Counted from the first letter of the stretch, positions 18,940 through 57,036 are shown. The stretch is 63,560 bases of DNA from a virus (IMGVR_UViG_3300027852_000005:1-63560); one strand, 5' to 3'. Translations and numbers: made by a program. The notes: generated by a model from the sequence alone, not told the origin.

Positions 18940-19041
18940 TCTAACTCCCGCTACGCGGGGCGACATGTAGCGCAGTCTCTCTCGTGGCCGTTGGTGGGGT
19001 GGGGCCAGCTTGCGCTGGCCCTTGGTGCCTTGTGCCTTGTG
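18940..19041. repeat. G-rich dispersed element copy E1 (downstream of 19042..19437)
   Basis: Contains GCCGTTGGTGG (18987-97, shared with 23541-51 and 57006-18). Hairpins are CCCGC-TAC-GCGGG (18947-59) and GGCCAGC-TTGC-GCTGGCC (19003-20). Confidence 0.5.
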
Positions 19042-19437
19042 TTACTTGGTTGCCACGAGCCAACTTTGGTTAGTGTTGGCCATCCACGTAGGCATATTAT
19101 GCGCGGCCCATCCACCGCGTGGCGGCGCAACGCTGCTAGCCGCTGCACCCGCTACCAGCGCGGCCTTGAACTGTGCCAGCGTAAAGCCTTTGGGGTGCTC
19201 CTTGGTTAAGCTGTTGGCCACGGCCTGCGCGTAAGCACGGTGTGTACCGGGGCGCACAGGTGGCATGGTGCCAGCCACAAACAGGGGTGCTTGTGGTGCT
19301 GCTGCCTGCGCTGCCTTGGTGCCTGTTGCGGCCTTGGTGGTGGCCACTGTGCCGCTACCTGTTGCGGCTGTTGCGGCTGTTGCGGCTGGTGCCTTGCGCT
19401 TGGTTGTGGTGCGGGTGTTTGTTGCTGTGGTAGCCAT
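19042..19437 (-). CDS. Ala/Thr/Lys-rich protein (131 aa), possibly a histone H1-like DNA binder
   Basis: The ORF is much more GC-rich than its surroundings. The N-terminus is MATTATNTRTTTKRKAPAATAATAATGSG...KAATGTKAAQAAAP, and the C-terminal half is GTHRAYAQAVANSLTKEHPKGFTLAQFKAALVAG.... Confidence 0.55.
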   Translation of the reverse strand: MATTATNTRTTTKRKAPAATAATAATGSGTVATTKAATGTKAAQAAAPQAPLFVAGTMPPVRPGTHRAYAQAVANSLTKEHPKGFTLAQFKAALVAGAAASSVAPPRGGWAAHNMPTWMANTNQSWLVATK

Positions 19438-19637
19438 TTTAAATTTACCTTTTGGTGTGTGTGCTTGGCGTTAGTGCCTTGCTACACTTATTAACTTAGG
19501 ACCTGCCAAGGCATATGTAAAGTAAAAAATACACAAAATTCGTAAACAGTGTGTTTCCGCATTAGCGTGCAATCCGCCTTAGTGTTGCCGCATTTGTAGT
19601 GCATAACAATAATGCAACCAAAACAAAGGAACACAAA

Positions 19638-19799
19638 ATGTTTAACCGCTTGTTTAAGAAACCCGCCCCCGCTACTACTGCACCCGACCGCGCCTATGTA
19701 AAGGATAGTTATACGCAAAAGGTTATTTATACCGGAACCGTTGCTGCCTGCCAGCGTTACGTTAGTACCTTTGGGCTTTGCTATGTGGAGGCCTTTTAA
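19638..19799 (+). CDS. Hypothetical small protein (53 aa), plus strand
   Basis: ATG 19638 lies behind AAGGA (ORF-track 19599..19799 trimmed). It is divergent from 19042..19437. Confidence 0.45.
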   Translation: MFNRLFKKPAPATTAPDRAYVKDSYTQKVIYTGTVAACQRYVSTFGLCYVEAF

Positions 19800-19800
19800 T

Positions 19801-19977
19801 ATGGTGAAATTTGTATTACTGCTGACCCTTTGGAGCGCGGATACACCGGTGCCAGAGGTTTACGTTTTGGACAGTGGCATTACCGGACAGTATTGCATAG
19901 AGATGCTTTTGGAAAGCTATGCGCCGGACAGCATAGGGGTGCTGAGTTGTGAAGTTGACCAAGCATTTGAAAGCTGA
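19801..19977 (+). CDS. Hypothetical small protein with a signal-like N-terminus (58 aa), plus strand
   Basis: ATG 19801 lies 9 nt after GGAGG and 1 nt after the upstream TAA. The protein begins MVKFVLLLTLWSADTPVPE.... A terminator follows. Confidence 0.5.
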   Translation: MVKFVLLLTLWSADTPVPEVYVLDSGITGQYCIEMLLESYAPDSIGVLSCEVDQAFES

Positions 19978-19994
19978 CCAGCCCAAAGAGGGCA

Positions 19995-20021
19995 AGCCCT
20001 GCCGAGAGGCGGGGCTTTTTG
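19995..20021 (+). terminator. Rho-independent terminator of the plus-strand mini-operon
   Basis: AGCCCTGCC-GAGA-GGCGGGGCT (9-bp stem, one G-U pair) followed by TTTTT. Confidence 0.7.
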
Positions 20022-20201
20022 ACGACCGAGAGAAAGAGACGGAAAGAGAGAGACCAGTCTTCTTCTTCTTTCTCGGATTTACACTGTCGGCGAAAATCCG
20101 TCGGGGATAATCGGTGTCGGCGATTGACGAAAACGAAGACAGACCTATTCCTGCCGATACCCTCTCGGATACTGACAGTCGGCGATTTTTCCACCGGACG
20201 A
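20019..20201. repeat. Intergenic repeat unit R1 (purine-rich tract plus three TGTCGGCGA-type boxes)
   Basis: Boxes at 20085-93 and 20115-23 (within AATCGGTGTCGGCGATT), plus 20177-85 (AGTCGGCGA). The tract is gagagaaagagacggaaagagagag. Confidence 0.6.
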
Positions 20202-20516
20202 TTAATCTTGAGGATTATGCAGCAAATGGATAACGTCTTCTACCTTCTCGCAGCCCATGCCATCGTAATACTCTGCTTGCTCTATCGCAGTGCTCTCCCA
20301 ATCCAGATACGGTGAACCACCATCCCAGACCAGAAACTCTTGGTTGTTGTCGTCCCAAGCACAAAGCGTGTCCAGACCATAGACCTCTCCCGTCTGAGAG
20401 AGCAAGGCATAGGTGCGACCATTGTGATCGACGATAGCTGGTGGAGTGAACTGTAATGCAGGAGCCTCTTTTTTGAGTGCTTGCATTAAGTCGAGAAACT
20501 CTTGTGGGTGTGACAT
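20202..20516 (-). CDS. Hypothetical protein (104 aa), paralogue of 20717..21076
   Basis: Shares PQEF(L/M)DL ... (A/C)AWDD.N....(L/Y)(V/Y)WDG..P...WE....E.AE with its neighbour. RBS AAGGA. Confidence 0.6.
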   Translation of the reverse strand: MSHPQEFLDLMQALKKEAPALQFTPPAIVDHNGRTYALLSQTGEVYGLDTLCAWDDNNQEFLVWDGGSPYLDWESTAIEQAEYYDGMGCEKVEDVIHLLHNPQD

Positions 20517-20551
20517 TAGCTTATCCTTGGGTGGTAGTACGTTATATACTC

Positions 20552-20592
20552 AGAGTAGCATGTGGCTCCGAGTTAGACAAGTTTTACTTGTC
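20552..20592 (-). promoter_or_regulatory. Dyad-type promoter P2
   Basis: Sense: GACAAGTAAAACTTGTCT-N17-TACTCT. The dyad GACAAGT-N3-ACTTGTC is perfect. Confidence 0.6.
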
Positions 20593-20716
20593 ATCTAAAG
20601 ACAACTTTATTTCCAGTTATTTCCAGAAGAAAAGGAAGAAGAAGACGAATAACCATGCCGACAGCATCTCAGGGATAATCGGTGTCGGCGAAACCGACTA
20701 TCCCTTGGACGAATGC
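20593..20716. repeat. Intergenic repeat unit R2
   Basis: catctaaagacaactttatttccag..gaagaaaaggaagaagaagacga..ccgacag..gggataatcggtgtcggcga (box 20682-90). This parallels R1 and R3. Confidence 0.6.
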
Positions 20717-21076: not shown

Positions 21077-21107
21077 GTTGGTAGCCTTTATATTAAGTTG
21101 TGAGTTA

Positions 21108-21148
21108 ATATAACATGTAGAAGGTCCGAGAGACAAGTTCTATTTGTC
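21108..21148 (-). promoter_or_regulatory. Dyad-type promoter P3
   Basis: Sense: GACAAATAGAACTTGTCT-N17-TTATAT. Confidence 0.55.
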
Positions 21149-21288: not shown

Positions 21289-21930
21289 TTAGCTTTCGTC
21301 ATCTGAGCCCAAGAGAGGAGCCTCCGGCGTCACATCCTTCGCCGCTCCAAAACGCTTCTCCCAATCGTCAATGTCTTCCATCTCGGCAGGTGCGATCATG
21401 ACACCGCCAGAGTGGTTCACTGCGATCTCCTGTTTATCTCGATATCCCTTGTCGTGCTTCTTCAGTTCGAGCTCGATGAGGCGGATAGGATAGATTGTCT
21501 CTTCGGAGACGAGGTTGCCGTTCCGGTCGTAACTCTTCTTTGTCGTCCCGTTGAACAACAGGTTTTGATGGTGTCCAATCAGCTTGTCTTGATATTCCTG
21601 CTCTTGCATGTAGAGGGCCTCGGCGAACTCTTCATCATCTTCCATCGCCTTGCGAACTGTCTGCGGCGAAACTCCGGCTGCGGCTGCGCTCTCACCCATC
21701 CGTCCCCATTTCGCATACTCCAACAAGAAGATCTCCTTGGCCTTATCGTCGAACTTTATACGAGACATTCTTATCTCGGTCCGCCACTCTCCAGTGACGT
21801 CGTCGTATATATCCAGTTTTTGGACTTTCGATCCTCGGCTGATCAAACTCCGTGGCCTTTCACGCATACGGAATTCTTCGTCGTATTTCTGAGCATAGTC
21901 TTCGATTTCGTCGGCCATCTGTTCTCTCAT
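21289..21930 (-). CDS. terS: Terminase small subunit-like HTH protein (213 aa)
   Basis: ...KAKEIFLLEYAKWGRMGESAAAAGVSPQTVRKAMEDDEEFAEALYMQEQEYQDKL...LIELELKKHDKGYRDK fits the HTH-type small terminase pattern I recall from alphaproteobacterial phages. It is the first gene of the late strand block. Confidence 0.6.
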   Translation of the reverse strand: MREQMADEIEDYAQKYDEEFRMRERPRSLISRGSKVQKLDIYDDVTGEWRTEIRMSRIKFDDKAKEIFLLEYAKWGRMGESAAAAGVSPQTVRKAMEDDEEFAEALYMQEQEYQDKLIGHHQNLLFNGTTKKSYDRNGNLVSEETIYPIRLIELELKKHDKGYRDKQEIAVNHSGGVMIAPAEMEDIDDWEKRFGAAKDVTPEAPLLGSDDES

Positions 21931-22319
21931 CTATGTGCGTGTGAGGGAAGAATGTGAAGATCCCTCCTTAAACAGTTAGCATCCCAGCCCAAGGAAAGCA
22001 AGCTAAACCTCTCAGTAGAGTCAAGTAGAGTCAGCCGTTATTTCCAGAATTTCCGTCAACCTGTTGTTCTAACTACCCTAATTCATAATATTTATTATAA
22101 TAAAATAATAAAATAACTGACTCCCCTAACTTTACCACCAAGTCCCAGCAGCTACGCTGAGCAACCCGCTTCTTGGGCTTCCAACCCGAATTATAACTTA
22201 CCCTTTTAATTCTCATGAGAAATACCTGTTGCAACAGGCACTTAAACCGATATATCATTAAGTTCGTTAAACACATAAAGGGCGCTTTTGCCTCCCCTTA
22301 GACTAAGGAAACATATCGA
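21931..22319. promoter_or_regulatory. Divergent control region between terS (minus) and 22320..23003 (plus)
   Basis: Tandem AGTAGAGTCA x2 (22014-22033); GTTATTTCCAGAA shared with R2; an AT tract ataatatttattataataaaataataaaataa (22085-22116); a perfect 14-bp palindrome CCTGTTGCAACAGG (22225-38) over a plus-strand TTGCAA-N16/17-TATATC. Confidence 0.45.
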
Positions 22320-23003
22320 ATGGCTCAATATCTAAATCAGTTTCAACCCCGTCGTGACCAGAAGGATATGATGTTCAGGACGCACCCAAGACTGGCCCAA
22401 CAGAGAGGAAGACTGTACCGCTCATGCGAATTACCGAACATGATCACACAGATCCAACTCTATAGATACACGTTCGATGACCATTTCGCTACACAGATTG
22501 CGATTTCGGACCTGCATAATTATCTGGTCGGAAGGGTTCCATTTATTTCCAAGAAACACCTTGGTGGAGCAGTGCTGAACGCGCTTGACTACGACCCTCG
22601 TAAATTGAAGGGAGTTACCAAAGAAAACGACAAGGCAACGATGACTTATATCTTTGCAGGTGGTCCGCTTGAATTGCGCTATGGTTTAGAATGGATGATC
22701 TGCGCATGGTATAGAAGATTTTTAATGAGCGAAGGCACGCACGAAAGCGATTTGGACACTCCAGAGAAGATGGCGTGGGAACTGGACCTCTTGGGTACAG
22801 AAAGCCATGAAGATTATATTCAGGATGTTCTTGGGCCTCTCCGACGGATGGAAGCGGTATATCCAGAGCCTGATTGGAAGACTTTGATGCGACAAGCTGC
22901 GATCGGTAATCACGACCGTAAAGCAGATTATGATCTAGTTATGGGAGACCCACCTAAGGATTTGTCTGACCGAGCAACAGGACTAACACTCATCTCGCAA
23001 TGA
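22320..23003 (+). CDS. Hypothetical protein (227 aa), the only sizeable plus-strand gene
   Basis: ATG 8 nt after AAGGAA. It is convergent with the early minus-strand genes, and a hairpin follows. No motif was recognised. Confidence 0.65.
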   Translation: MAQYLNQFQPRRDQKDMMFRTHPRLAQQRGRLYRSCELPNMITQIQLYRYTFDDHFATQIAISDLHNYLVGRVPFISKKHLGGAVLNALDYDPRKLKGVTKENDKATMTYIFAGGPLELRYGLEWMICAWYRRFLMSEGTHESDLDTPEKMAWELDLLGTESHEDYIQDVLGPLRRMEAVYPEPDWKTLMRQAAIGNHDRKADYDLVMGDPPKDLSDRATGLTLISQ

Positions 23004-23279: not shown

Positions 23280-23521
23280 CAGTTCAGCGCCTTGTTCAAG
23301 ATATCGGAGAGGCTGTCGCCAGCATCGATCTGCGTTTCCCATGAGGCTCGTTTCCGAAGGTCTGCAAGTATCTGCGTCGTCAACTCTGCGATACGGTCCT
23401 CACATTCCTGCGCCTTGTCACGGCGCTCCATCTTCAACTCCAGCTGAAACTGAACGAAGCGGAACTGGAGTTCCCCATGGGCCTTTTCGACCTTTTCACG
23501 TAAATCACACATTTCACACAT
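23279..23521 (-). CDS. Hypothetical coiled-coil protein (80 aa)
   Basis: ORF track, same-strand gene train. Confidence 0.55.
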   Translation of the reverse strand: MCEMCDLREKVEKAHGELQFRFVQFQLELKMERRDKAQECEDRIAELTTQILADLRKRASWETQIDAGDSLSDILNKALN

Positions 23522-23524: not shown

Positions 23525-23749
23525 CTAGGACCCCTCTGGTGCCGTTGGTGGTGCAGTGGTGCGGGGCGCTGCATCCAGCGCGTCCGTAGAGCCTCTGTAA
23601 TGGTCCCTGACCATCACTTTGAGGGCGTTGTGCGCTATGCGTAGCGAGGCATCACTGCCTGAGATTAACTTTATCTCCAGACCAGTCGGTTGATGCACCA
23701 TCTTCACCTTATCGAACACAAAGTTCGGCACTTTATCTACCACGGTCAT
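23525..23749 (-). CDS. Small protein with a release-factor (RF-1 domain)-like core lacking GGQ (74 aa)
   Basis: VKMVHQPTGLEIKLISGSDASLRIAHNALKVM compares with RF2 [31 protein letters not shown]. The C-terminal tail GSTDALDAAPRTTAPPTAPEGS is encoded by G-rich element E2. Confidence 0.4.
   Translation of the reverse strand: MTVVDKVPNFVFDKVKMVHQPTGLEIKLISGSDASLRIAHNALKVMVRDHYRGSTDALDAAPRTTAPPTAPEGS
23531..23595. repeat. G-rich dispersed element copy E2 (translated as the C-terminal tail of 23525..23749)
   Basis: GCCGTTGGTGG at 23541-51. The 18-mer CCAGCGCGTCCGTAGAGC at 23575-92 is identical to 36359-76. Confidence 0.6.
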
Positions 23750-27254: not shown

Positions 27255-27440
27255 TTTGCGGTAGCGTGGTGGTAATAGGTGGGCGGGGACACGTGGGAGG
27301 ACCAGTGTATGCACCGCCAGACGCGTCCCCCTTGCTGCCGTAGGCTACCACACCAGCCAGCAAGGGGAGACGGTCCCAGACCGCTAATAAGCGGTCCGCA
27401 ATAGCCGCGCTTTATAGTCCCGTGAGCACAAGCGCGGCTG
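27255..27440. repeat. G-rich element E3: four consecutive strong hairpins (candidate structured RNA or REP-like cluster)
   Basis: Plus-strand coordinates: GGGGACACGT(27285-94)/ACGCGTCCCC(27321-30); CCCCTTGCTG(27327-36)/CAGCAAGGGG(27358-67); GACCGCT-AATA-AGCGGTC(27379-96); AGCCGCGCT(27403-11)/AGCGCGGCT(27431-39). Confidence 0.55.
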
Positions 27441-27590
27441 TTCCGTTCTAGAAAGGGTAAAGCAATCAACTGTTTTCCACAGGACTTCCTTACCGTTCCT
27501 TAAATACTTACGTTGAACCTCCCCCGATGGGAGAACTCTTACGGTCTTGGGCCTGTTATAACGAACGCGGCTCCGAGACCATAGTTTCAT
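27384..27590 (-). CDS. Possible small basic protein (68 aa) whose 3' half runs into element E3
   Basis: The ATG is ATGA-coupled to the stop of 27587..27793. The sequence is MKLWSRSRVRYNRPKTVRVLPSGEVQRKYLRNGK.... Confidence 0.35.
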   Translation of the reverse strand: MKLWSRSRVRYNRPKTVRVLPSGEVQRKYLRNGKEVLWKTVDCFTLSRTEQPRLCSRDYKARLLRTAY

Positions 27591-34705: not shown

Positions 34706-35086
34706 TCATTTGTTTCCGAACGTATCTTCCCAAGCCCACACGACATTCGCAACGAGTGACTGGATTGTATATGCCTCGAATTCTATTGAGGGATTATGTT
34801 CGCCAATTCTTTCGATCAGTTCTTGGAACACATGAACACATTCGTGCGCGATGATGCCTGCTCTCATGTACGGAGCCATTCCTTCGCAATTCACGGTTAC
34901 GATACAGACAGGGTCGTTCTTCTTTCCCTTTGGGTAAAAAGTGGCCATCTGTCCAGCCCCTTTGGAGTAGGGTTCATCCTTGATCTTCAGCTTCTTTAGA
35001 AGTCTATGCCACGACTTCTTACTCGGCGCATAATAAGCCTTAATTGGATACGGGCCTAGTTCGAGAGTGTAGTGCCATTTGCTCAT
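34706..35086 (-). CDS. Small HExxH-motif protein (126 aa), putative metallopeptidase-like
   Basis: IIAHECVHVFQELIERIGEHNP. ATGA-coupled to the ligase gene. Confidence 0.45.
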   Translation of the reverse strand: MSKWHYTLELGPYPIKAYYAPSKKSWHRLLKKLKIKDEPYSKGAGQMATFYPKGKKNDPVCIVTVNCEGMAPYMRAGIIAHECVHVFQELIERIGEHNPSIEFEAYTIQSLVANVVWAWEDTFGNK

Positions 35087-36027
35087 GAGAAGAGGTCCAT
35101 CTGTTCTTGATCCATATCGTCGGCGTCTCGGAAGCCCAAGAAGGTAGGAAAGCGAGGCTTGTCCTTGATACCGACAGTGAAATACTTCATCTTTACGATT
35201 TTATCAATATAGTCTTGTCGGCGATCCCAGACTTTTTGCCTGATCTCATCATCTAATCCTGTTCCAACTCTGCACGTGAAAGCAGTTCCGTCTGGGAAGC
35301 TTCCGCTAACGCTAAGAGCGCCGAGCGTGTCTTTGCCGATAAGGTTCTCTTTATGCCCTGAGCGTTCCGTGTGACCGAGATTGTCAATCGTGGCTTCATT
35401 GGCGTTGTGGAGTTGTTCATGGAAGTCGAGGATTTTACACTCTGTGTCAATCCAGCCACCTTCTTTCATTTTGATGCACTCACACTTCACAGGTGAGCCG
35501 CGTCCAAATTTATAGAAGGCATCAGGATCTCGGAGGATGATACCCTCCTGCCCTTGGGCAATCATTTCCTCATGAAACTCGTTCACTTCGTCCATGTTCA
35601 GTAATAACCGAGTTTCTGCTAGTTTTATATTTCCTGGACTTTTCATATTTCTTTGCCAAATACCTTGTTGATACTTAAGATATTCAAATCGCTGCTCAAA
35701 TATATCTGGTTCGTCCCATTTATCAAACACGTAGAATGTGAATGTATCAAGTTTATCGTAACTCATTACGAAGCTGCTGGTTCTCTGGAAGCATCCATCC
35801 GCTGTTGGATCACCGCAGATTATTTCCCCGTCCATACCTTCCAAGAAGTCACTGTTATTTCGAACCCATGATTGAATTTCAGCTGACCGGACTGGTTTCA
35901 GGCTGCGAGTGTAGGCATATCCATCTCGAACAAATACCCTGATCCCGTCGTACTTCAATTGACCCAAGAGAGGAAGCTTCTTTTCGACCTTAATGGGATC
36001 ATATTTCCCAGCGAGCATTGGTTTCAT
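35083..36027 (-). CDS. lig: ATP-dependent DNA ligase (314 aa)
   Basis: Adenylation motif I is KYDGIR in MKPMLAGKYDP...LLGQLKYDGIRVFV. The size is typical of minimal phage ligases. Confidence 0.85.
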   Translation of the reverse strand: MKPMLAGKYDPIKVEKKLPLLGQLKYDGIRVFVRDGYAYTRSLKPVRSAEIQSWVRNNSDFLEGMDGEIICGDPTADGCFQRTSSFVMSYDKLDTFTFYVFDKWDEPDIFEQRFEYLKYQQGIWQRNMKSPGNIKLAETRLLLNMDEVNEFHEEMIAQGQEGIILRDPDAFYKFGRGSPVKCECIKMKEGGWIDTECKILDFHEQLHNANEATIDNLGHTERSGHKENLIGKDTLGALSVSGSFPDGTAFTCRVGTGLDDEIRQKVWDRRQDYIDKIVKMKYFTVGIKDKPRFPTFLGFRDADDMDQEQMDLFS

Positions 36028-36228: not shown

Positions 36229-36269
36229 AGTATAGCAAAGTAACTGCAAATTGACTAAACCTTTATATC
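36229..36269 (-). promoter_or_regulatory. Dyad-type promoter P11 (degenerate dyad)
   Basis: Sense: GATATAAAGGTTTAGTCA-N17-TATACT. Confidence 0.5.
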
Positions 36270-36270: not shown

Positions 36271-36380
36271 TACCCCACCGGAGGGCAGCCGTGGCAAGGC
36301 AGGGCATAGGGCGCGGCCTGTGGTGGTGCATGTGGTAGGGCAGGGCGCTAACGCTGCTCCAGCGCGTCCGTAGAGCTCCC
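36271..36380. repeat. G-rich dispersed element copy E4 (intergenic)
   Basis: CTGTGGTGGTGCATGTGGTAGGGCAGGGCGCTA is the core. The 18-mer CCAGCGCGTCCGTAGAGC (36359-76) is identical to 23575-92. Confidence 0.6.
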
Positions 36381-36382: not shown

Positions 36383-36694
36383 TTATTCCTCATGGTGGGT
36401 CATATACTCCCATGGGCCATGAAAATAGTCCTTGGTATTGGGAGACAGATCATAAGCTACCTCGCCAATCTCAGAGAAAGGGTCCAATCCAGTTTTCAGG
36501 CCATTCGCTATCATCTGTATCTGTCCAAAGCAAATGTCACCTTGCTCCTCACAGATATATGGATCGTATCCGCCACGGACTCCGTCCTCGGTGTGGTGTT
36601 CTACCACGAAATCGAATATGTCATTGTCGGCGATTTTTAGTTTCTCGCTGTCTCTTAGGTAAGGACAATCAAAACATGGAGATGCGCAAGCCAT
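36383..36694 (-). CDS. Cys-rich hypothetical protein (103 aa)
   Basis: TAATG-coupled to the primase-helicase gene. It contains the exact 16-mer TGTCGGCGATTTTTAG (36625-40), which is also present in repeat unit R3. Confidence 0.6.
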   Translation of the reverse strand: MACASPCFDCPYLRDSEKLKIADNDIFDFVVEHHTEDGVRGGYDPYICEEQGDICFGQIQMIANGLKTGLDPFSEIGEVAYDLSPNTKDYFHGPWEYMTHHEE

Positions 36695-39159
36695 TAGAAC
36701 GGAACCTTTATATCGCCGAGTTCGAGTTCAACTGGACTTGGCCATTCTCGATCACCGTAGACTTTGTCCCAACTGGCTCGGCATTGTTCCAGAGTTCCAA
36801 GGTCATAGTGATACATTCGCTTCTTGGTGCGATATGGTTGGTTAGTCTCGTTATCATATTCCTCAACTGTAACACGCTTTTGCATTTTGTTGATATGAGG
36901 AACAACTCTGTTTAGGAAACGGCCCAAGAGGGTAGCGTTGCCTCTCCGAGCAAATTTCCACTTATCTGCATACGATGTATAGTCCTGCTCCAGAGCGTCT
37001 GTTGGGACATCACGTATCCAGTCATCATGGTTCTGCAAAATGCGGCCATCCCATAGCTTGTGATACCACCATTCCTCTTCAACGCCCATGGACATAAGCT
37101 TCTGTTCTTGCAGAGCATCAGTTTGTGGTACGTTGCGAACTTCAAACTCACTTATATCCACGTTCTGAAGGTGATAGAGCAATGCTTCATATCCACCATT
37201 GTCCATTTGCTTGGTCAATGATTTAAAGAAGGTTGCGTCTTGCTTACGGTTTTCACCCATATCTAGAACAAAATAACGCCTTTCATCTCCAGTTGCCCTA
37301 ATGACATGCGGGTCGTTTGAGGCCATGATGAGGTGAACATAGTTGGGATAAGGTTCGGTGTCAATACCTTTGGCTTCAATCGGTATACTGTCCTCAGTGA
37401 TGAGCATTTTAAGCACTGACTCATGACGTTTATCTCCCGCAAAGAATGCCTCATCGGCAAACAGGCTGATAACATCTCTAAGGTGAGCGTTGAAGTTTCC
37501 GACAAGGTGGGATGGGTTGGCGACGTGAAGGTGATGTCTACCAAAGAGACGTCCGAAAGTTCTCGCAAAATAGCCTTTACCAGTACCTTTTCCACCTCTG
37601 AGGACAATGGCAACTTCACCTGGACTTGCTGGTGTTTGTACGACACGCGCCATCCATTGGATGAGATAATCATAGTGTTCTTGGACCCCACTGCACACAT
37701 TTTCTCTTAGGTGTTCGAGATATATGGAGCAGTCTCCGGGTATAGGTTCCACGTTAAATCCACGCCAGAGATTGTAGACTCCTGGCTGATCGCCCTGCGG
37801 CATGAATTTCATGGTATCGTATTGACGACGCATTCGGTGGTTAATCCAGTATTTACCCAAGGAAACATGCACTGGATCATTTTTGTCGGTCGTACCGATT
37901 TGGATCTGGATATTGCTGTAGCGGTTGCGGATATCTTCGAAGCTGGACATCGTGATCCGGCTCCTGTGTAGAACGTCATCCTCGATCTCCTCAATGACGC
38001 GACACTTCCCTCCGATATTGCCGATAATGGCATGGCGGTCGTTCATCTTGGTAAGGTGCGGGTCCTCACTGTATTCCTTGGCTCGCTTGATCTGGCGGAT
38101 TGCATATTTCTCAGCGCCACCTTTCAGTTCACAGACACTGCTGGCGATCCCCCATTCAGGGTCGGTCAAGATAGCGAATATGACACCGTCGGGGACATTG
38201 CAGCGAGCCAGCGCACAAACACAATCGAACAGCCAAGCTGACCGAGAATTGTCACCTCCCTTGGGTTGGTCAGGATGCTGCCCTTGGGCAATAATAACCT
38301 TGACTCTATCAGGGACGTCCCACACGTCCAGTTCGCTGAGGTCTTGGATGCGCTCTATATTACCGGGAATATCGACTTTAATGCCGTACTCGCCACCATC
38401 GTGGCGTCCAGGAGCGGAGGTCTGTACCGCTTGGGCTTTCTTGAATTGATCAATGCTGTAGACGTTCTTGGTGTCAAATTCAAGGAGGCGGGATAATTCC
38501 TTTGTGCGACCCTTTTTCAGCTTCTTGGCGTCAGGAACGTTGACTGTCCCAGGAAGGCGCATGATGCGGTCGACGTTGTGGCAATGATCGCCTCCGAACA
38601 CCTGCTCTAGCCGCTTGTTATAAAGTTCGAACTCAGACCACGCTGCTTCGGTCCCATCAATCTTGAAGGGCTTGTCCAGTTTCCAGAAGGCTTGATACCC
38701 ACCGCCTGAGAATAGGATAACTGTCGGCTTCTCGATGCCTTTTGGAAGGCGGTCGGTCAATACGCTGAGAACTCGTTCCCGTTCCATTTTCAGGAAACCT
38801 TGAATATCCTCCTCGTCTGCCGAAGCCTCTTCTGGATCAACGTCAACGTGCAGCCAATGGGCTTCGAACATATCTTCTTTGTTTGGCTTCTTGACTTTAT
38901 CTGATTTCAGAAAAGCGAGGTTCGGCTGGTTCACGGTAAAGTAGATGTTCCGTTCGCCGTTGTATCTGTCCAACCATTTAAGACAGGCATCTACAGACTT
39001 TGGTCCGAATGGCTTGGTGTCGATAGCTTTGCGGTCGGTTTGAATTGAAGTAAGAAGCCACGGCCCTTTCGGGTAAAACTTCATTAAGAAATCAATTGCT
39101 CTTTGGCTTTCACCGTTCATTCCAGAATGCCTCCAGTTTCCCTGACGGCACTTTGCCAT
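36694..39159 (-). CDS. Primase-polymerase / SF3 helicase fusion (821 aa; ATG 39120 is an alternative start)
   Basis: Walker A is VLRGGKGTGKGYFARTF, with a downstream ...VHLIMASND... Walker B-like segment. The N-terminal ~300 aa is AEP/prim-pol-like (..HVDVDPEE.., ..RLPGTVN..). Confidence 0.75.
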   Translation of the reverse strand: MAKCRQGNWRHSGMNGESQRAIDFLMKFYPKGPWLLTSIQTDRKAIDTKPFGPKSVDACLKWLDRYNGERNIYFTVNQPNLAFLKSDKVKKPNKEDMFEAHWLHVDVDPEEASADEEDIQGFLKMERERVLSVLTDRLPKGIEKPTVILFSGGGYQAFWKLDKPFKIDGTEAAWSEFELYNKRLEQVFGGDHCHNVDRIMRLPGTVNVPDAKKLKKGRTKELSRLLEFDTKNVYSIDQFKKAQAVQTSAPGRHDGGEYGIKVDIPGNIERIQDLSELDVWDVPDRVKVIIAQGQHPDQPKGGDNSRSAWLFDCVCALARCNVPDGVIFAILTDPEWGIASSVCELKGGAEKYAIRQIKRAKEYSEDPHLTKMNDRHAIIGNIGGKCRVIEEIEDDVLHRSRITMSSFEDIRNRYSNIQIQIGTTDKNDPVHVSLGKYWINHRMRRQYDTMKFMPQGDQPGVYNLWRGFNVEPIPGDCSIYLEHLRENVCSGVQEHYDYLIQWMARVVQTPASPGEVAIVLRGGKGTGKGYFARTFGRLFGRHHLHVANPSHLVGNFNAHLRDVISLFADEAFFAGDKRHESVLKMLITEDSIPIEAKGIDTEPYPNYVHLIMASNDPHVIRATGDERRYFVLDMGENRKQDATFFKSLTKQMDNGGYEALLYHLQNVDISEFEVRNVPQTDALQEQKLMSMGVEEEWWYHKLWDGRILQNHDDWIRDVPTDALEQDYTSYADKWKFARRGNATLLGRFLNRVVPHINKMQKRVTVEEYDNETNQPYRTKKRMYHYDLGTLEQCRASWDKVYGDREWPSPVELELGDIKVPF

Positions 39160-39499
39160 TTTCCATCAGATTGTACCAGTAGCGGGTGATCCCCATCAAA
39201 TCAGCGCAGGATTGCTGCGTCCAACCTGAACGGCGTCTCCAGATAAGGCATTGCTCCGCTCCTGTGAGCGGTTCTATTGATATGTTGCACTTGGCAGTCC
39301 CTTCGGTTTCCATCTCACTGTAGCGTCGGCGCTTAACGCCAGACAGAGCGGCCATCTGTTTTTGGCTGAACCCCATACGGCGGCGATAGATCAGGCTGCG
39401 TTCTCCTTCAGATAAGTCAAGAGTTTCTCCACTTGTAGGCCGTTCGGGAAATACAGTACCGCGTTCGCGATCATCTCCGGCCTCGTCATGTTGTCCCAT
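39110..39499 (-). CDS. Tandem-HTH (XRE-like) DNA-binding protein (start uncertain; ~129 aa from ATG 39499)
   Basis: There are two repeats: LIYRRRMGFSQKQMAALSGVKRRRYSEMETEG and LIWRRRSGWTQQSCADLMGITRYWYNLMENGK. It overlaps the 3' end of 39391..39813 in another frame. Confidence 0.5.
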   Translation of the reverse strand: MGQHDEAGDDRERGTVFPERPTSGETLDLSEGERSLIYRRRMGFSQKQMAALSGVKRRRYSEMETEGTAKCNISIEPLTGAEQCLIWRRRSGWTQQSCADLMGITRYWYNLMENGKVPSGKLEAFWNER

Positions 39500-39813
39500 A
39501 GGTTGTTTTCCTTGATGTGCTTTCCGGACCAAAAGAACCACGACTTGCTGACCTGAGCGCATACCAGCGCCAGACCTCCGCGTCTCTCCCGACGGTATAG
39601 CCATACTTGCTGCTCTTTGGAAAGAGGGTGTGTGAACTTCACTGGCTTGGTGTCTGCTGTCTTGGGCCAGTATCTCATCCATTTGCATTCTATCACACCG
39701 CCAATAAAAAAGACGTCCGGAATACCAAGTCCAGTCGAAGGGCTCTCAATACTCACTGCATCCAGTGGCTTGAGTTTCTTTACGAGGTTGGAACGGCTTG
39801 ATGCTTCGGACAT
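39391..39813 (-). CDS. VRR-NUC-like nuclease (140 aa)
   Basis: Trimmed to ATG 39813 (MSEASSRSNLVKK...). The motif GIPDVFFIGGVIECKW...LSKEQQVWL fits the PD-(D/E)xK VRR-NUC pattern. Confidence 0.5.
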   Translation of the reverse strand: MSEASSRSNLVKKLKPLDAVSIESPSTGLGIPDVFFIGGVIECKWMRYWPKTADTKPVKFTHPLSKEQQVWLYRRERRGGLALVCAQVSKSWFFWSGKHIKENNLWDNMTRPEMIANAVLYFPNGLQVEKLLTYLKENAA

Positions 39814-41223: not shown

Positions 41224-43299
41224 TTATTTGATTTCTCCCCAACTAGGTCCTGTCTCGGTGTCCACTTTGAATGGAACCAGAGGTCGGCACCGCTTGAGAA
41301 CACAGTCCCTCATAATATCACCAACTGCCACCGCTTCTGCGACTGAGCCATAGCTACCATCTGTCTCATCATGCACCTGCAATTGCAGATACGCATCAGT
41401 CTTATCAATCTCGACCAATGCAAGTTTCGTTTGGTCTGCAGATGACCCTTGGATCACCCTGTTCAATGCTTTGTGAGTATAGTCATAAGAACCATCATCA
41501 CGCTGCTCGAAATGAAGGTGGCGGTTAAAGATAGTCTTAACAAATCCCTTTCCTTCTGCTCTCGCCGTTGCCGCCTTTGCCAATGCTCCAACGAACGGAG
41601 CCTCTCTGTCGAACTTATCTAGGATCTCTTGTCCCTCTTCACCAGCCATCTCCTTATAGTAGCCAGTCCCCGCATCCATCCTTGCAGCCATCGCATCTTG
41701 CTTATCTTCGTAGTAATTAATGCGGCGTTTCTTGCCCCATCCTGAGATATGTGCCCAACGAGTAGGCTTGCCGATGTCCTCACAGAGTTTGGCTCCGCCT
41801 TCACCGTAGCATAGCCCAAGGTAGATCGCCTTGGAGAAGCCTCGCTCCAACTTAAATTGCTTTGGGTCAGTCGCCAACCATGCGTCAACCGCTGTATCAC
41901 CGTTAACGATACGGGTCATCATTTCATGGTTGTCTGTGCTTGGGTCGTCTCTGTATCGCTTGGCTGCGTCTCTGGCTTTTGGGAAGTCCATGAGGGCTGC
42001 GAAGTGTGTTGTCCATCGTGGTTCTTGCTGTGAGTAATCATTACAACCCCAGATGGCTCCTTCCTCGGGAATGAAGATCTTGCGCCATTCGCCAGCAATG
42101 ATCGGATCTCTATCGGGCGAAGGTTGCTGCTGGAGGTTCGGATCGACCGCCGAACACCTTCCATAGCGAACACCTTTCTGTATGCCTTGCTCGTTCTCGG
42201 CTGCGATTTGCTTAAACGAGCAGTGGATCTTGCCGTTAACTGCATACTTGCGAATAGACTCTGCAAAGGTGGTTCTAATCTTGTTTACTTTGCGAGCATG
42301 TAGGATTGCATCAGCGACAGGATGGTCAGCACCAGCGAGCAACGCTTTGTCAATTTGTGGATTGCCAGTAGACGTCTTATTTAGACGCATACCGATATCT
42401 TCCAGCGCAGGTGCGATGACGTTGGGTTTCCAGATATTACCGACGCCGATGTCAACACCAGTCGCTCGCTTAACTGTGTCCAGTGACTTGAGTTCCTCAT
42501 CCATTGACCACTTCTCAATAGACGATAGCTTGTCAAAGTCAATCCGCACACCACGGCGACGCATTCTTACGAGAACAGGAAGGACGTCCGTCTCGAGGTC
42601 CCAGATTTCACGGAGGCCAGCTTTCTCAATTTTTTCTTCTTGTATTCGTAGGATTTCAAGCGGCGAGGTGACGTCTTGTTCACCATACGCCCCGACGAAG
42701 CGAGCGGGTAGCCGCCATAGTCCTTTCTTTGCATCGAGACCGTGGGCTTGTGCTGCCTCGATGAGGAGTGTTTCATCTTTTGCTTCAACTCCGCATCGCT
42801 CACCAATCTTGGCAAGTGAATACGACCATTCGAGTTCGTTGAGCAAGGGATCCGCAATCTGAATATCGCGGAACTTAGCCTCGCGATGCCATTCAAAGCC
42901 ATCGTTATATCCATAGTCAACATCGTAGGCAAGGTTAGCTCCGACAAACTCTCCTGTGAAGTTTTTGATGTTGTCCCGGAGGTAGCGCAGGACTTCGGTT
43001 TCGTCCATGTTGTCTCCTCCTTCGTGTCTGAAGGGGAGGTAGTGTTTTGGTCCTCCGTCAATGGCGAAGGCCCATCCAACTGTATAACCGTCTCGCATTT
43101 GACCAGTCCCGAGACCATTCCCAATTGATGGATCCCTTGTCTCAGCATCGATAGCTATCCTTTTTGCATTAGCCCAAGAAGGAAGATCAGCGATCGCGGG
43201 AGGACGCCAGTCTGCTTTGGGCATGAACATAGACATCTGGAGAGGAGACTCTCCATTATTCCTCGCTTTCGCGGCTGCTTGTTTTGTCTGCTTTGCCAT
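41224..43299 (-). CDS. Family A DNA polymerase with 3'-5' exonuclease domain (691 aa)
   Basis: Exo I is IAIDAETRD. The DPNLQQQP region is also present. Motif B is KAIYLGLCYGEGG and motif C is LQVHDE. Confidence 0.9.
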   Translation of the reverse strand: MAKQTKQAAAKARNNGESPLQMSMFMPKADWRPPAIADLPSWANAKRIAIDAETRDPSIGNGLGTGQMRDGYTVGWAFAIDGGPKHYLPFRHEGGDNMDETEVLRYLRDNIKNFTGEFVGANLAYDVDYGYNDGFEWHREAKFRDIQIADPLLNELEWSYSLAKIGERCGVEAKDETLLIEAAQAHGLDAKKGLWRLPARFVGAYGEQDVTSPLEILRIQEEKIEKAGLREIWDLETDVLPVLVRMRRRGVRIDFDKLSSIEKWSMDEELKSLDTVKRATGVDIGVGNIWKPNVIAPALEDIGMRLNKTSTGNPQIDKALLAGADHPVADAILHARKVNKIRTTFAESIRKYAVNGKIHCSFKQIAAENEQGIQKGVRYGRCSAVDPNLQQQPSPDRDPIIAGEWRKIFIPEEGAIWGCNDYSQQEPRWTTHFAALMDFPKARDAAKRYRDDPSTDNHEMMTRIVNGDTAVDAWLATDPKQFKLERGFSKAIYLGLCYGEGGAKLCEDIGKPTRWAHISGWGKKRRINYYEDKQDAMAARMDAGTGYYKEMAGEEGQEILDKFDREAPFVGALAKAATARAEGKGFVKTIFNRHLHFEQRDDGSYDYTHKALNRVIQGSSADQTKLALVEIDKTDAYLQLQVHDETDGSYGSVAEAVAVGDIMRDCVLKRCRPLVPFKVDTETGPSWGEIK

Positions 43300-43913
43300 T
43301 ATCTTATGTCACCAGGATGCCAATCATCAGCTGAATCATAGCCGAATGGGTGTTCTTGGCCATCAACGCCCCTACTTGCGACCTCTGTGGACGTGCTGGA
43401 CGTTGTGGCTTGGGTGGTAGCACCACCAGCGCATCCGTTGCCCCCTGTTTTTGCCGCCTGTGGCGCGGTTAGAGGTGCCAATGGGCCAAGGGTGCCGCCA
43501 GCATCTAGCGTGGCCTGTGCGGCTTCTATGTGCGCCGAGATTTGGCCGATGATAAGGCTGATATCCGAATCATTGCGCCATTGTGCCATGGAGAGGCAGA
43601 GATCAGCTTCGATATCAGGCAAGTCTGCGCTATCAGCGAACGTACCGAACAGAGTTTCGGCCTTGTCACGAGCCAGCGGCCAGCTATCAACGTGCAGACA
43701 CTTGTTGTCCCAACGACCTTCAAGAAAACATTCCTTGGCTTTGAGCAGGTAGGACCGAGCCTTGTCCAGATCTTCAATGCCGTTCTTCTTGTACCAGCGG
43801 AAGGCATACTTGGAGGCAGCGCTCTCGAGATACCCAAGGCGAACATCGATCGCCCAGTCCCAGTGCTGATAGTCAGCTTCGTAGTGGCTTCCGCCAATTT
43901 GCGTAGATTTCAT
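43299..43913 (-). CDS. DUF3310 (SaV-like) protein with a long C-terminal extension (204 aa)
   Basis: GGSHYEADYQHWDWAIDVRLGYLESAASKYAFRWYKKNGIEDLDKARSYL is the DUF3310 signature. The extension ...TLGPLAPLTAPQAAKTGGNGCAGGATTQATTSSTSTE... is encoded by element E5. Confidence 0.65.
   Translation of the reverse strand: MKSTQIGGSHYEADYQHWDWAIDVRLGYLESAASKYAFRWYKKNGIEDLDKARSYLLKAKECFLEGRWDNKCLHVDSWPLARDKAETLFGTFADSADLPDIEADLCLSMAQWRNDSDISLIIGQISAHIEAAQATLDAGGTLGPLAPLTAPQAAKTGGNGCAGGATTQATTSSTSTEVASRGVDGQEHPFGYDSADDWHPGDIR
43380..43520. repeat. G-rich dispersed element copy E5 (translated inside 43299..43913)
   Basis: GACCTCTGTGGACGTGCTGG (43380-99) is homologous to GACCTCTACGGACGTGTTGG (56921-40), followed by a TTGTGGCTTGGGTGGTAGC core. 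Confidence 0.55.
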
Positions 43914-55186: not shown

Positions 55187-55209
55187 GGTTATATCCTTTA
55201 TCTATTTGC

Positions 55210-55250
55210 ACCTTAACTCAAACAGGTTACTGTGACAACATCACTGACTC
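55210..55250 (-). promoter_or_regulatory. Promoter P16 for the replication block
   Basis: Sense: GAGTCAGTGATGTTGTCA-N17-TAAGGT. Confidence 0.45.
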
Positions 55251-55331
55251 CACTGACTTCACTCGTGAAACGTCCCTTGCGCCCAAGTGAGGGCATCTCA
55301 AGCCGTTGTTTTTATTTACTTTATTTATCAC

Positions 55332-55360
55332 TGACTTTACTTACTTTACTTACTTTACTA
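55332..55360. repeat. Tandem 9-mer repeat (TGACTTTAC TTACTTTAC TTACTTTAC) in the 331-bp noncoding region
   Basis: Read directly at 55332-55358. It is flanked by A/T-rich sequence. Confidence 0.8.
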
Positions 55361-55517
55361 AAAACCATAGCCAGCTAAACCCGCCAGCCCTAGCAATTGG
55401 AAATTTAGGGGTGCCAGTAGTGCAAGTGAAGTCAGGCGATAATCTTTGCAGCAATAACAACGCTGTAAGACTTTAGGGATGACTTCACCTGCCTCTACTT
55501 GCCCTCACTAAAAGGCG

Positions 55518-56024
55518 CTAATGCAGCATCTCATAATGCGGCCCATCAATAAAGTCAGGTCCAGGATGACGGATGGTGTAGTCACGAACAGCCTTCTGCA
55601 TCGCTGCTGCGTATGCTTCTGGGCTGTTTAGGCTCTTGGGCGCATACTCGTCAAGTTCCTTGTCCCATACACCGCCCCACCGCAACTCCAGATCCATCTC
55701 GCGGCTTAGATAAGCCATGCAACCTGCGATCGGATAGATCAGTGGCCATTCCCAACGTGGAGACCCAACGTAAGGGACGAGGTCCACCGCTTCGCCGTAC
55801 CCACTGGTCTGCTTCTGGTGCTTTGACTTGCGACGACGACCATCCAACTTTGATGCTCCGCGATCGTAGAGTTTCTTCTGCATAGAAGCGGTTCGCAGGC
55901 CACCGTCGGCGAGAATTGTGAAATCAACAGGAGTGATCTTGATGCACTCTTTAACCAGAGCGACTAGCTTCGGATGAACGCCTTTCAGGTTCTTCTTTGA
56001 GTTTGTACCGAGTACATATTTCAT
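55518..56024 (-). CDS. Endolysin, M15-family (VanY/L-alanyl-D-glutamate peptidase-like, 168 aa)
   Basis: ...GGLRTASMQKKLYDRGAS...SKHQKQTSGYGEAVDLVPY... fits the zinc-peptidase M15 pattern (compare T5 endolysin). Confidence 0.65.
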   Translation of the reverse strand: MKYVLGTNSKKNLKGVHPKLVALVKECIKITPVDFTILADGGLRTASMQKKLYDRGASKLDGRRRKSKHQKQTSGYGEAVDLVPYVGSPRWEWPLIYPIAGCMAYLSREMDLELRWGGVWDKELDEYAPKSLNSPEAYAAAMQKAVRDYTIRHPGPDFIDGPHYEMLH

Positions 56025-56344
56025 TATGATTTCTCCATTCTTTCGAGCATCCTATCAATCCGTGAGGTTAGATTACCCATAGTTGAAATTAGCCTCTCCT
56101 CACTGAGAAGCATTTTCTGCTCCATGTCAGCAAGACGATTTCCACTGACATATTTCTCTGCGACCTGCAATTTGAATTCATGCAGTTCATCTGTTATCTG
56201 CTGGTGATGAACAGCATCGGTCAGTGAATTAGCCATAACTTTTCTCCATAGGTTCCAGAGAATTGTTCCGAAGATACCAGAAGTAGTGATCGCCAAGCCT
56301 AATATACTAAGCAATTCTGGGAGTGATATTGTAATTCCGGTCAT
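56024..56344 (-). CDS. TM plus coiled-coil protein in the lysis cassette (106 aa), possibly a holin/antiholin or lysis regulator
   Basis: It has an N-terminal TM (LSILGLAITTSGIFGTILWNLW) and is coupled on both sides (ATGA, TAATG). Confidence 0.5.
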   Translation of the reverse strand: MTGITISLPELLSILGLAITTSGIFGTILWNLWRKVMANSLTDAVHHQQITDELHEFKLQVAEKYVSGNRLADMEQKMLLSEERLISTMGNLTSRIDRMLERMEKS

Positions 56345-56655
56345 GTGTCTGTGATCCTTTGGTCTCGCTTCTTATAGAAGTCTATAAGGGCCTGTAGTTG
56401 CAATCCACAACTGATTAAGTTAGATCTATCGCGGATCCAAAAGGCTTCCACTTCCACTTGGGTCATGGATCTAGATGGCAGCAGAGCAGGCCGCTCACAA
56501 TCAGCAATCAACCCAGAAGGAGGATCAGAAAGAATCGGTGGCTCAACGGATCCTATTGATTCTGAACACGCTGTCGTCGCCAATGGCGCGGCGATCAGCA
56601 TTAGGATCTTTAGAACCTTGAAGCAATAATTCTTCAATTTCTGAGTTACGTTCAT
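56341..56655 (-). CDS. o-spanin-like lipoprotein (104 aa from ATG 56655)
   Basis: The signal is ...LKILMLIAAPLATTAC|SES. The gene overlaps the 3' end of the i-spanin gene by ~113 nt, an overlapped spanin architecture. Confidence 0.6.
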   Translation of the reverse strand: MNVTQKLKNYCFKVLKILMLIAAPLATTACSESIGSVEPPILSDPPSGLIADCERPALLPSRSMTQVEVEAFWIRDRSNLISCGLQLQALIDFYKKRDQRITDT

Positions 56656-56914
56656 CAAGTAGTCTCTCGAGTTCTAACTGTCTTAATCTCGCTTCTTCGA
56701 GTGCCTCGTTGTTGGCCTCAGTTTGACGATGACGTTCCTCTTGAACGGCGGTTTGATATTTTTGTTCGGTTACTTCGACACCACGGTCGTAGCCGCTATC
56801 ATAGACCCACCACACGGCAAAGATGATAGCTAGTGCGACCAAGATGTAGGGTAAAAACTTCGCTAATGCAACCCCAGCGCGTTTTCCGAACAGTGAAATT
56901 AGAAGTGATACCAT
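56543..56914 (-). CDS. i-spanin-like protein (123 aa)
   Basis: It has an N-terminal TM (FLPYILVALAIIFAVWWVY), a coiled-coil periplasmic part and the tail ...IGDDSVFRINRIR. Confidence 0.65.
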   Translation of the reverse strand: MVSLLISLFGKRAGVALAKFLPYILVALAIIFAVWWVYDSGYDRGVEVTEQKYQTAVQEERHRQTEANNEALEEARLRQLELERLLDERNSEIEELLLQGSKDPNADRRAIGDDSVFRINRIR

Positions 56915-56920
56915 AGTGTT

Positions 56921-57036
56921 GACCTCTACGGACGTGTTGGTGTGGGTTGGGTGGGCGGTAGGGTAAGCGGCGGCAACGCAGGGCGTCCGCCTGCGCCTAT
57001 TGTGGCCCGTTGGTGGGGCATAGGGGCAGGGCGCTA
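56921..57036. repeat. G-rich dispersed element copy E6 (intergenic, holin to spanin)
   Basis: CCTCTACGGACGTGTTGG (56923-40) is the inverted form of the 18-mer at 23575/36359. Also present are the core TGTGGGTTGGGTGGGCGGTAGGG, CCCGTTGGTGGGG (57006-18) and GGCAGGGCGCTA (shared with 36339-50). Confidence 0.6.

Follow-up and report, generated by a model that had tools for sequence, protein, structure and literature searches.

Lytic phages of the T7 type carry related imperfect hairpins for RNase III processing at their gene junctions, near the next ribosome-binding site. In Cluster K mycobacteriophages, the start-associated sequences (SAS) and extended start-associated sequences (ESAS) are short, clade-specific repeats located at orthologous genes, and their function is unknown (Pope et al. 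2011, PMC3203893). The SAS is an asymmetric motif that includes a ribosome-binding site and lies 3-8 bp ahead of start codons, oriented with transcription, with rare copies on the other strand; about half of the SAS (consensus GGGATAGGAGCCC; 11-19 copies per genome) are accompanied by imperfect 17-bp inverted repeats with a spacer of 4-13 bp (PMC3203893). The localized nick sites of T5, phiKMV-like phages and tf are present in few to 14 copies per genome and share a 9-20-bp asymmetric consensus, which in phiKMV contains an unconstrained central stretch (CGACxxxxxCCTA/CTCCGG); relatives share their positions, all known sites are on a single strand, and recognition takes place on DNA whatever the coding context (PMC3517423). 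Here, we analysed a 63,560-nt stretch of viral DNA (IMGVR_UViG_3300027852_000005:1-63560; the window), in which a first-pass annotation had noted a family of six dispersed G-rich patches. Four of these patches are copies of one 62-68-nt unit with two arms, two copies per strand, while a fifth (patch 3) is unrelated and the membership of the sixth (patch 1) is unproven. The unit is a real, selected signal, and it showed no sign of mobility, of a counterpart in hosts or of the properties of a Rho-utilisation site.

The unit comprises a 17-nt 5′ arm (CCCTGTGGYGGCGCTGG), a 26-nt spacer and an 18-20-nt 3′ arm (CCAGCRCGTCC-NN-AGAGGTC). This second arm is the 18-mer that had already been singled out in the window, and it has two free positions (NN) inside. 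The spacer is exactly 26 nt long in all 41 distinct copies, and its sequence is free except at two positions, ranging from C-rich to G/T-rich among copies. The G-richness of the plus strand is a property of the window genome and not of the family; relatives can have a spacer that is G/T-rich on the strand of the mRNA. The end motif had been placed on one or the other side of a core, like a remnant of terminal inverted repeats; the inverted-repeat ends hold, with the correction that each copy carries both arms, the one opposite the 18-mer being diverged.

The four copies, numbered after their patches (p2, p4, p5 and p6; Table 1), lie at the borders between tail and lysis genes, between nucleotide metabolism and DNA polymerase, between primase and ligase, and at one place within the early region. 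The p2 copy falls within the 3′ end of a 74-amino-acid (aa) open reading frame (ORF; 23749..23525, minus strand) and encodes its last ~22 residues. On the mRNA, p4 begins 7 nt past the stop codon (36385-36383) of a 103-aa gene; behind it come a C-rich stretch and a promoter of the sigma-70-like kind. The p5 copy is in frame within the linker of a 204-aa DUF3310-like ORF (43913..43299), where it encodes GGNGCAGGATTQATTSSTSTEV, and p6 lies between a 90-aa membrane-protein gene (stop at 57034) and an Rz-like spanin gene (AUG at 56914). The family is sited at gene 3′ ends, as had been claimed. The p5 copy is an internal linker of a conserved protein rather than the C-terminal tail it had been taken for; the other proposed tail, p2, does end its ORF. 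In the window genome, the 5′ arm of p6 is degenerate and nearly lost. Relatives carry at this place a 5′ arm CCCTGTGGCSGCGCTGG exactly 26 nt upstream of the sense-orientation 18-mer CCAGCRCGTCCGTAGAGG.

The motifs on which the family had been founded were all present, the sole deviation being one mismatch. The 18-mer CCAGCGCGTCCGTAGAGC is identical at 23575 and 36359, where with the preceding T it forms a 19-mer (blastn-short E 1.5e-5), and its reverse complement recurs in near-identical form at 56923 (3 mismatches) and 43382 (4 mismatches). GGCAGGGCGCTA was found at both 36339 and 57025; GCCGTTGGTGG occurs at 18987 and 23541, and at 57006 the sequence is CCCGTTGGTGG, one mismatch away. The patches do stand out: few 60-nt windows of the plus strand reach G >= 0.42, and the patches are among them; another such window, 19239-19435, is simply the Ala/Thr-rich N-terminus of a protein. 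We then measured patch similarity by local alignment against 200 dinucleotide shuffles. Alignments were better than shuffles among patches 1, 2, 4, 5 and 6 (z is 10.7 for p2-p4, 6.7 for p2-p6, 5.9 for p5-p6, 4.6 for p1-p2 and 2.9 for p1-p6), whereas patch 3 (27255-27440) had no likeness to the others (z from -0.1 to 1.7).

A profile built from 13 relatives' copies at the p6 place, with no window sequence included, recovered all four copies: p2 at 23532-23591 (+; 30.8 bits, model positions 6-65), p5 at 43435-43380 (-; 27.5 bits), p4 at 36315-36378 (+; 20.6 bits) and p6 at 56986-56921 (-; 17.4 bits). Against these scores, the best match in 50 windows shuffled within 70-nt blocks reached 8.8 bits. 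Consequently, the two orientations of the 18-mer reflect the whole unit, present twice per strand, and the dispersed family with inverted-repeat ends is real.

A scan of all fetched loci (relatives' loci are labelled L below) confined the unit to the phage's relatives, at places orthologous to p2, p4, p5 and p6, each of which keeps one constant orientation; one further place was found in a more distant relative, L097. Orthologues of p4 are present in L002/L020, L027 and L028, and the 18-mer is kept there with 1-4 changes in L021-L029. There are 12 distinct orthologous copies of p5, down to 36% aa identity in the N-terminal domain, and 19 distinct orthologous copies of p6 with both arms. In a census of the inner-arm pattern in IMG/VR, 18 of 50 stretches satisfied the full profile, all from relatives of the window; the other 32 were chance matches in unrelated high-GC contigs and failed it. 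We found no relative in which a conserved locus lacked the unit. The nearest cultured phage, Janthinobacterium phage Donnerlittchen (large terminase subunit, TerL, 55% identical), has no unit (best match 8 bits).

Genes have been added around these places in some relatives, and the unit's flanks seem to be hot spots of gene gain. Extra genes lie just upstream of the p4 unit in L024/L029 and L028, one of those in L028 being response-regulator-like. In L002 1957-2985 (= L020; IMGVR_UViG_3300017698_000019), the DUF3310-like protein has an in-frame insertion of ~40 aa directly after p5, and two extra genes (161 and 137 aa) separate its gene from that of DNA polymerase. Six relatives (L050, L051, L052, L055, L061 and L069) carry a further motif, TAGGGACGTCCAGG (CCTCTACGGACGTCCAGG in L069), ~110 nt upstream of the p6 unit. 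It resembles an inverted 18-mer and shares bases with the upstream stop codon; next comes a G-rich stretch that resembles the reverse complement of the unit spacer. Inverted copies of the motif thus enclose the entire intergenic region in that subclade.

The arms are complementary, yet they do not vary as the two sides of a stem would. The fraction of paired cells is 83% across 14 p6 copies and 74% across 28 copies from all places, compared to 31-52% in slid-partner controls. Covariation between the arms was absent (463-498 of 500 shuffles reached a paired fraction as high), compensatory changes were no commoner than in shuffles, the consensus structure folds at only -1.8 kcal/mol, and mid-arm changes are uncompensated in new metagenomic copies (for example, L205). 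In the relatives' p6 copies, the minimum-energy fold mostly pairs the arms (-17 to -36 kcal/mol), and folding z-scores for the unit are weak (-3.6 to +0.9). In the window itself, arm pairing at p6 is gone (-7.6 kcal/mol), the arms of the antisense p4 copy pair on the mRNA at ~10/18 positions (manual count) and are left unpaired in its predicted fold, and the folds of p1, p2, p4, p5 and p6 are no more stable than shuffles. The L097 unit has 15 perfectly complementary positions around a 26-nt spacer and lies 3 nt past a stop codon. Because complementarity comes without covariation and with uncompensated changes, the arms are on this comparison of copies kept as sequences and not as pairs; taken together with the fixed spacer and the correlated variability described below, the arms, the 18-mer above all, are kept at a fixed distance, independent of the direction of transcription. 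Two other structural candidates were rejected. A long hairpin across the relatives' whole intergenic regions had a z of only 0.3 to -2.0, and a minute inversion of the spacer between copies was not significant (best reverse-complement identity 16/26, equal to the shuffle 95th percentile).

Two of the copies are translated. For p2, three relatives (L001/L108 and L003) retain the reading frame as well as the terminal PEGS. The protein that contains p5 is conserved down to 36-39% identity, and this is the only copy in which the 18-mer lies within a conserved coding domain, a circumstance that the first-pass annotation had listed as counting against the family. There, the spacer varies as expected of coding sequence (entropy by codon position 0.72/0.42/1.15), while in the 3′ arm third positions are the least variable (0.65/0.35/0.32); at the NN-A codon the encoded residue changes (T/V/S/R) and the following A is constant. 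This pattern suggests a constraint on nucleotides rather than on protein. In L002/L020, the p5 copy is the reverse complement of the p2 copy over 22/22 nt, an identity that costs amino-acid changes (STSTEV to SASVEL). Both ORFs read the element in frame, and we found no homologue of either without it. The p6 copy is non-coding (pairwise differences by codon position 490/548/514). A small ORF in p6, with a hydrophobic-looking peptide ending in PARP*, was rejected, as it has no consistent start and no codon periodicity; the frame of this peptide relative to the upstream gene shifts between relatives.

Per-column variability of the 18-mer arm is correlated between the antisense p4 and the sense p6 copies (Spearman 0.61, p 0.007) and between p4 and the coding p5 copies (Spearman 0.63, p 0.005), so the same positions are free or fixed whether a copy is intergenic, inside an ORF or antisense to genes. 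Judged by this shared profile, purifying selection acts on the nucleotides of the 18-20-nt arm CCAGCRCGTCC-NN-AGAGGTC.

In either orientation, the unit's mRNA end reads AGAGG(G). At p6, AGAGG is the Shine-Dalgarno sequence (SD) of the spanin-like gene at a spacing of 4-8 nt in 9/13 orthologues (8 nt before the AUG in the window), while the others use a later GGAGG. The mRNA end of p2, AGAGGGG, lies 9 nt before an AUG at 23521 and has a ribosome-binding role in 3/3 relatives. No start codon lies behind p4 or p5. At the p4 place, the unit arm overlaps the upstream stop codon in some relatives, and the unit stays with the counterpart of the downstream promoter despite genes inserted upstream; in L028, two inserted genes displace the unit, yet it remains beside this promoter. 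Several other signals were considered at the units and rejected. A lambda nut-like boxA/boxB arrangement (GCTCTAC plus hairpin) loses its hairpin in L021-type relatives, and its motif occurs in both orientations; a sigma-54-like TGGCAC at the spacer start has no TTGC at the required distance. Chi octamers (GCTGGTGG) are found at the arm/spacer junction of several copies, but only 1/7 in the window lies in a unit; the window has 2 on the plus and 5 on the minus strand, which we judged close to the expectation of ~1 per strand. A candidate G-quadruplex, GGGTTGGGTGGGCGGTAGGG, is present on the plus strand of p6, but the spacer is not conserved, and no strand of it is consistently G-rich in relatives.

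We tentatively favour, with a probability of about 0.4, the reading that the unit is a site recognised by its sequence and in two parts, probably as duplex DNA. Two half-sites, spaced ~44 bp centre to centre, would be read by a sequence-specific protein, which the phage itself most plausibly encodes; this distance of roughly four helical turns would place them on the same face of the helix. The sites would mark borders between gene blocks, and at two boundaries the outer AGAGG would additionally have been taken over as the next gene's SD. The DNA transaction could be a boundary or roadblock to transcription, site-specific nicking, or the binding of a replication initiator, namely the P4-alpha-like primase-helicase whose gene neighbours p4. 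In support, we count the restriction to relatives at orthologous places, the fixed spacer, the absence of covariation, the use of both orientations with correlated variability, the third-position constraint inside an ORF, the p2-p5 match in L002/L020 and the poor pairing of the p4 arms on the mRNA. Several observations weigh against this reading: no binding protein was identified for the unit, its sites have no uniform tie to promoters, four sites are too few for testing the 2+2 orientation pattern, coding constraint could in part explain why spacer length is fixed at p5, and the outer end works as a ribosome-binding site in 9/13 p6 and 3/3 p2 orthologues. Two more favour RNA, as the arm imperfections of the sense copies are of the G-U type and so pair on the mRNA strand only, and the minimum-energy fold of most relatives pairs both arms. 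As the main rival reading, it is possible, though on balance doubtful, that the unit is an RNA hairpin at cistron junctions, in which an anti-SD-like 5′ arm (CCCU/CUCU...) would pair with the AGAGG-bearing 3′ arm and sequester the next gene's ribosome-binding site until cleavage, or translation of the upstream ORF across or beside the stem, frees it, or in which the stem would serve RNase III or act as an exonuclease barrier, like T7 processing sites or bacterial REPs. Such a hairpin fits an mRNA-end AGAGG(G) positioned 4-9 nt before the start codon at p6 and p2, the complementary arms with their CUGUGG/CCGUAG imperfections as G-U wobbles on the sense strand, the -17 to -36 kcal/mol folds of most relatives at p6, the 15 perfectly complementary positions of the L097 copy and the overlap with upstream stop codons. 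It does not account for the missing covariation and the -1.8 kcal/mol consensus fold, the weak z-scores or the unpaired p6 copy of the window; a loop of fixed length and free sequence would be odd, p4 and p5 keep AGAGG with no start codon behind, and the antisense copies share the constraint profile although they pair worse on the mRNA, which they do because the unit-strand wobble pattern is kept.

An inverted-repeat family in both orientations, at gene ends and in frame in two ORFs, also invites comparison to selfish palindromes, and the first-pass annotation had likened it to MITEs (miniature inverted-repeat transposable elements), REPs (repetitive extragenic palindromes) and RPEs (Rickettsia palindromic elements). 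Current mobility of this kind is contradicted by the orthologous placement, by flanks that share no direct repeat in the window's four copies or in the relatives' copies (no target-site duplication) and by a search of 50 distinct ORFs, about half of the ~96 candidate ORFs, which found no transposase, REP-associated tyrosine transposase (RAYT), integrase or HNH protein with PHROGs or Pfam. An origin from host REPs was rejected because the exact 18-mer is at chance level in bacterial genomes (14 single hits in 185,579 genomes and 596 Gb, compared to ~17 expected, never more than one per returned locus; diverged copies were not searched). Thus, the absence of a duplication, a transposase or a unit-free conserved locus argues against a currently mobile or host-derived element. 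A relic that spread to four ancestral sites, is now immobile and survives at gene ends because it is harmless there, its copies kept alike by occasional gene conversion, is unlikely: the 22/22 identity of p2 and p5 in one relative does suggest conversion between copies, and the flanks are sites of gene gain, but conserved loci show no presence/absence polymorphism, unrelated viral contigs hold no counterpart, and conservation across relatives with 36-75% protein identity, third-position suppression and a shared constraint profile all point to function. Quite unlikely, too, is the narrower proposal that the unit is the target of a clade-peculiar site-specific DNA transaction, either localized nicking or iteron-like binding of the primase-helicase. 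On this proposal, site polarity would be opposite in the two genome halves (+,+ at 23.5/36.3 kb and -,- at 43.4/56.9 kb), and the region between the primase and polymerase genes would hold an origin or terminus; if true, it would be the first such system with a two-strand, replication-symmetric polarity and with a site kept inside a protein-coding linker. The suggestion that C-rich, G-poor transcript segments load Rho at operon ends, as Rho-utilisation sites or insulators, is very improbable. A Rho-utilisation site is expected to be an RNA stretch of about 70-80 nt that is rich in C, poor in G, free of structure and not translated. In the window, the spacer and adjacent sequence are indeed C-rich on the mRNA (C 0.45 and G 0.22 in the p6 patch), the five patches fold no more stably than shuffles, and promoters follow p1 and p4. 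However, G is not depleted over whole patches (0.29-0.31 on the mRNA in p1, p2 and p4), mRNA spacers at the same place are G/T-rich in L043, L044, L049 and L055, and the selected parts are the GC-balanced arms rather than the C-rich spacer. Moreover, p6 lies within what seems to be a single unit of late transcription, right on the ribosome-binding site of the following gene, and p2 and p5 are translated, which excludes Rho loading there.

Patch 1 may at most be a decayed copy of the unit. It has two small hairpins (GGCCAGC-GCAA-GCTGGCC and CCCGCGUAGCGGG). What it has in common with the units is limited to 11-12-mers, it had no profile match at E < 10, and its counterpart in L001 is not unit-like. 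Patch 3 is a candidate for a separate and new structured RNA or leader, based on its predicted fold. The minimum free energy is -77.7 kcal/mol (z -5.19; 0/200 shuffles as stable), and the third stem has been rewritten in two relatives with seven pairs kept through changes on both sides and an invariant loop GGCUGGUGUGGUAGCCUACGGC. Patch 3 has no Rfam match even at E <= 5, and a 21-mer scan for its orthologues brought up none beyond the two known before.

The window is a complete, circularly closed genome of the siphovirus type (~63.4 kb) with nearly all genes on the minus strand. Its two ends carry an exact 127-nt duplication (1-127 = 63434-63560), which is most likely the assembler's overlap from closing a circular or permuted genome and not a biological terminal repeat. 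Besides the genes of Table 1, it encodes helicases, a ribonucleotide reductase and a thymidylate synthase. A DNA-level search of phage records returned no close relative; among cultured phages, Donnerlittchen, Bordetella phages CN1/FP1 and Pseudomonas PaMx74 come nearest (TerL ~55% identical), and uncultivated relatives are numerous in IMG/VR and in marine, mat and other metagenomes. The whole window has no Rfam match at gathering thresholds, and no tRNA or tmRNA.

Other features of the genome and its relatives were recorded alongside. An ORF of the small-terminase family (21289-21930, minus strand; phrog_4044, E 1.7e-20) precedes the large terminase gene by 4.3 kb, with about ten small genes and patch 1 in between. 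The only sizeable plus-strand ORF (22320-23003, 227 aa) has no PHROG match, is preceded by a promoter-like site (22229-22258) and occupies a stretch free of minus-strand ORFs; it is probably a real gene that converges on the minus-strand early genes. An 18-nt palindromic family, TGACAAGTTCTACTTATC on the plus strand (20575, 21131, 25971, 28742, 32308 and 39850), is found at gene junctions and reads GATAAGTAGAACTTGTCA on the minus strand, where TTGTCA/TTGTCT coincides with predicted -35 elements (21136, 25976 and 32313); one copy is within a 15-bp hairpin (25996-25964). From its sequence and placement, this family resembles a cassette that combines a stem-loop with a promoter, or else an operator of the helix-turn-helix protein 39688..39110. 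Finally, contig JGI24723J26617_10000032 (197,896 bp) has three identical helicase-to-unit copies (L205, L241 and L245) at ~64.8-kb spacing; it seems to be a related ~65-kb genome that was assembled as a three-fold concatemer.

Table 1. Positions of the unit copies, their parts and other features in the window
Feature	Position	Strand	Remarks
Unit copy p2	23527..23594	+	antisense to genes
p2 5′ arm	23532-23548	+	CCCTCTGGTGCCGTTGG
p2 spacer	23549-23574	+	
p2 3′ arm	23575-23592	+	CCAGCGCGTCCGTAGAGC
Unit copy p4	36311..36378	+	antisense to genes
p4 5′ arm	36316-36332	+	
p4 spacer	36333-36358	+	
p4 3′ arm	36359-36376	+	exact 18-mer
Unit copy p5	43380..43447	-	sense
p5 5′ arm	43442-43426	-	
p5 spacer	43425-43400	-	
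p5 3′ arm	43399-43382	-	CCAGCACGTCCACAGAGG
Unit copy p6	56921..56988	-	sense, intergenic
p6 5′ arm	56983-56967	-	
p6 spacer	56966-56941	-	
p6 3′ arm	56940-56923	-	CCAACACGTCCGTAGAGG
Patch 1	18940..19041	-	GC-rich intergenic stretch after gene 19437..19042
Patch 3	27300..27445	-	three-hairpin element on mRNA strand, upstream of gene starting 27244
Sigma-70-like promoter	18875..18903	-	TTGTCA-17-TAAAAT; directly downstream of patch 1; conserved in L001
Sigma-70-like promoter	36229..36257	-	TAGTCA-17-TATACT, TG-extended; downstream of p4
Terminase	16976..15447	-	structural genes; portal, tape measure and tail proteins also present
ATP-dependent ligase	36027..35083	-	replication/nucleotide metabolism
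P4-alpha-like primase(-helicase)	39159..36694	-	encoded beside unit copy p4
DNA polymerase	43299..41224	-	replication/nucleotide metabolism
Rz-like spanin	56914..56543	-	lysis genes; endolysin also present

Short clade-specific phage repeats, including stoperators, SAS/ESAS, nick sites and promoter-stem-loop cassettes, are rare handles on the regulation of viruses known only from metagenomes. The anatomy of the unit is sharp in this respect, with two half-sites and an invariant 26-nt gap maintained even at a cost in amino acids, and the tempting MITE and Rho readings of the family are corrected. If the unit is bound by a protein, a widespread group of aquatic phages would have a regulator or DNA-processing enzyme that has so far escaped recognition. 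If it is instead an RNA gate, it would be a compact case of one element that supplies both anti-SD and SD in either orientation.

Compared to the hairpins processed by RNase III in T7-type phages, the unit has no covariation, a long unstructured 26-nt loop, antisense copies and, in the window's p6, an unfolded member. With REPs and bacterial interspersed mosaic elements, MITEs and RPEs it shares the form of a short, GC-rich, imperfect palindrome at gene 3′ ends, in either orientation and sometimes in frame. Unlike them, it is low in copy number, restricted to phages and long fixed at orthologous places, one of its arms is under sequence-specific rather than pairing constraint, and no RAYT, transposase, host copies or target-site duplication were found. 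Its 17-/18-nt imperfect inverted arms around a 26-nt core are a MITE feature; target-site duplication, insertion polymorphism and a related transposase (50 ORFs scanned) are MITE features that were not found.

The closest likeness is to the SAS/ESAS and, more loosely, to the nick sites, and because the unit departs from the defining features of each, it is a member of neither. Like the SAS/ESAS, it is restricted to a clade, located at orthologous genes and has inverted repeats, together with an SD-bearing asymmetric motif that lies before start codons at two of its places. The SD takes a SAS-like position at p6 (9/13 orthologues, 4-8 nt) and, via the unit's other end, at p2, but not at p4 or p5; half of the copies are antisense or in ORFs and have no start codon behind. 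The inverted repeat of the unit includes the SD-bearing motif itself, its spacer is fixed at 26 nt (41 distinct copies) rather than variable at 4-13 bp, it is present in four copies per genome rather than 11-19, and it has no sequence similarity to GGGATAGGAGCCC. Few copies per genome, an asymmetric consensus with free positions inside and placement conserved among relatives are features in common with the nick sites. In comparison to the nick sites, the unit, known from sequence alone, differs in its 2+2 strand split and in having a second arm at a fixed distance, while the GCGCTGG of its arms resembles the T5 major-nick core R/GCGCRGG.

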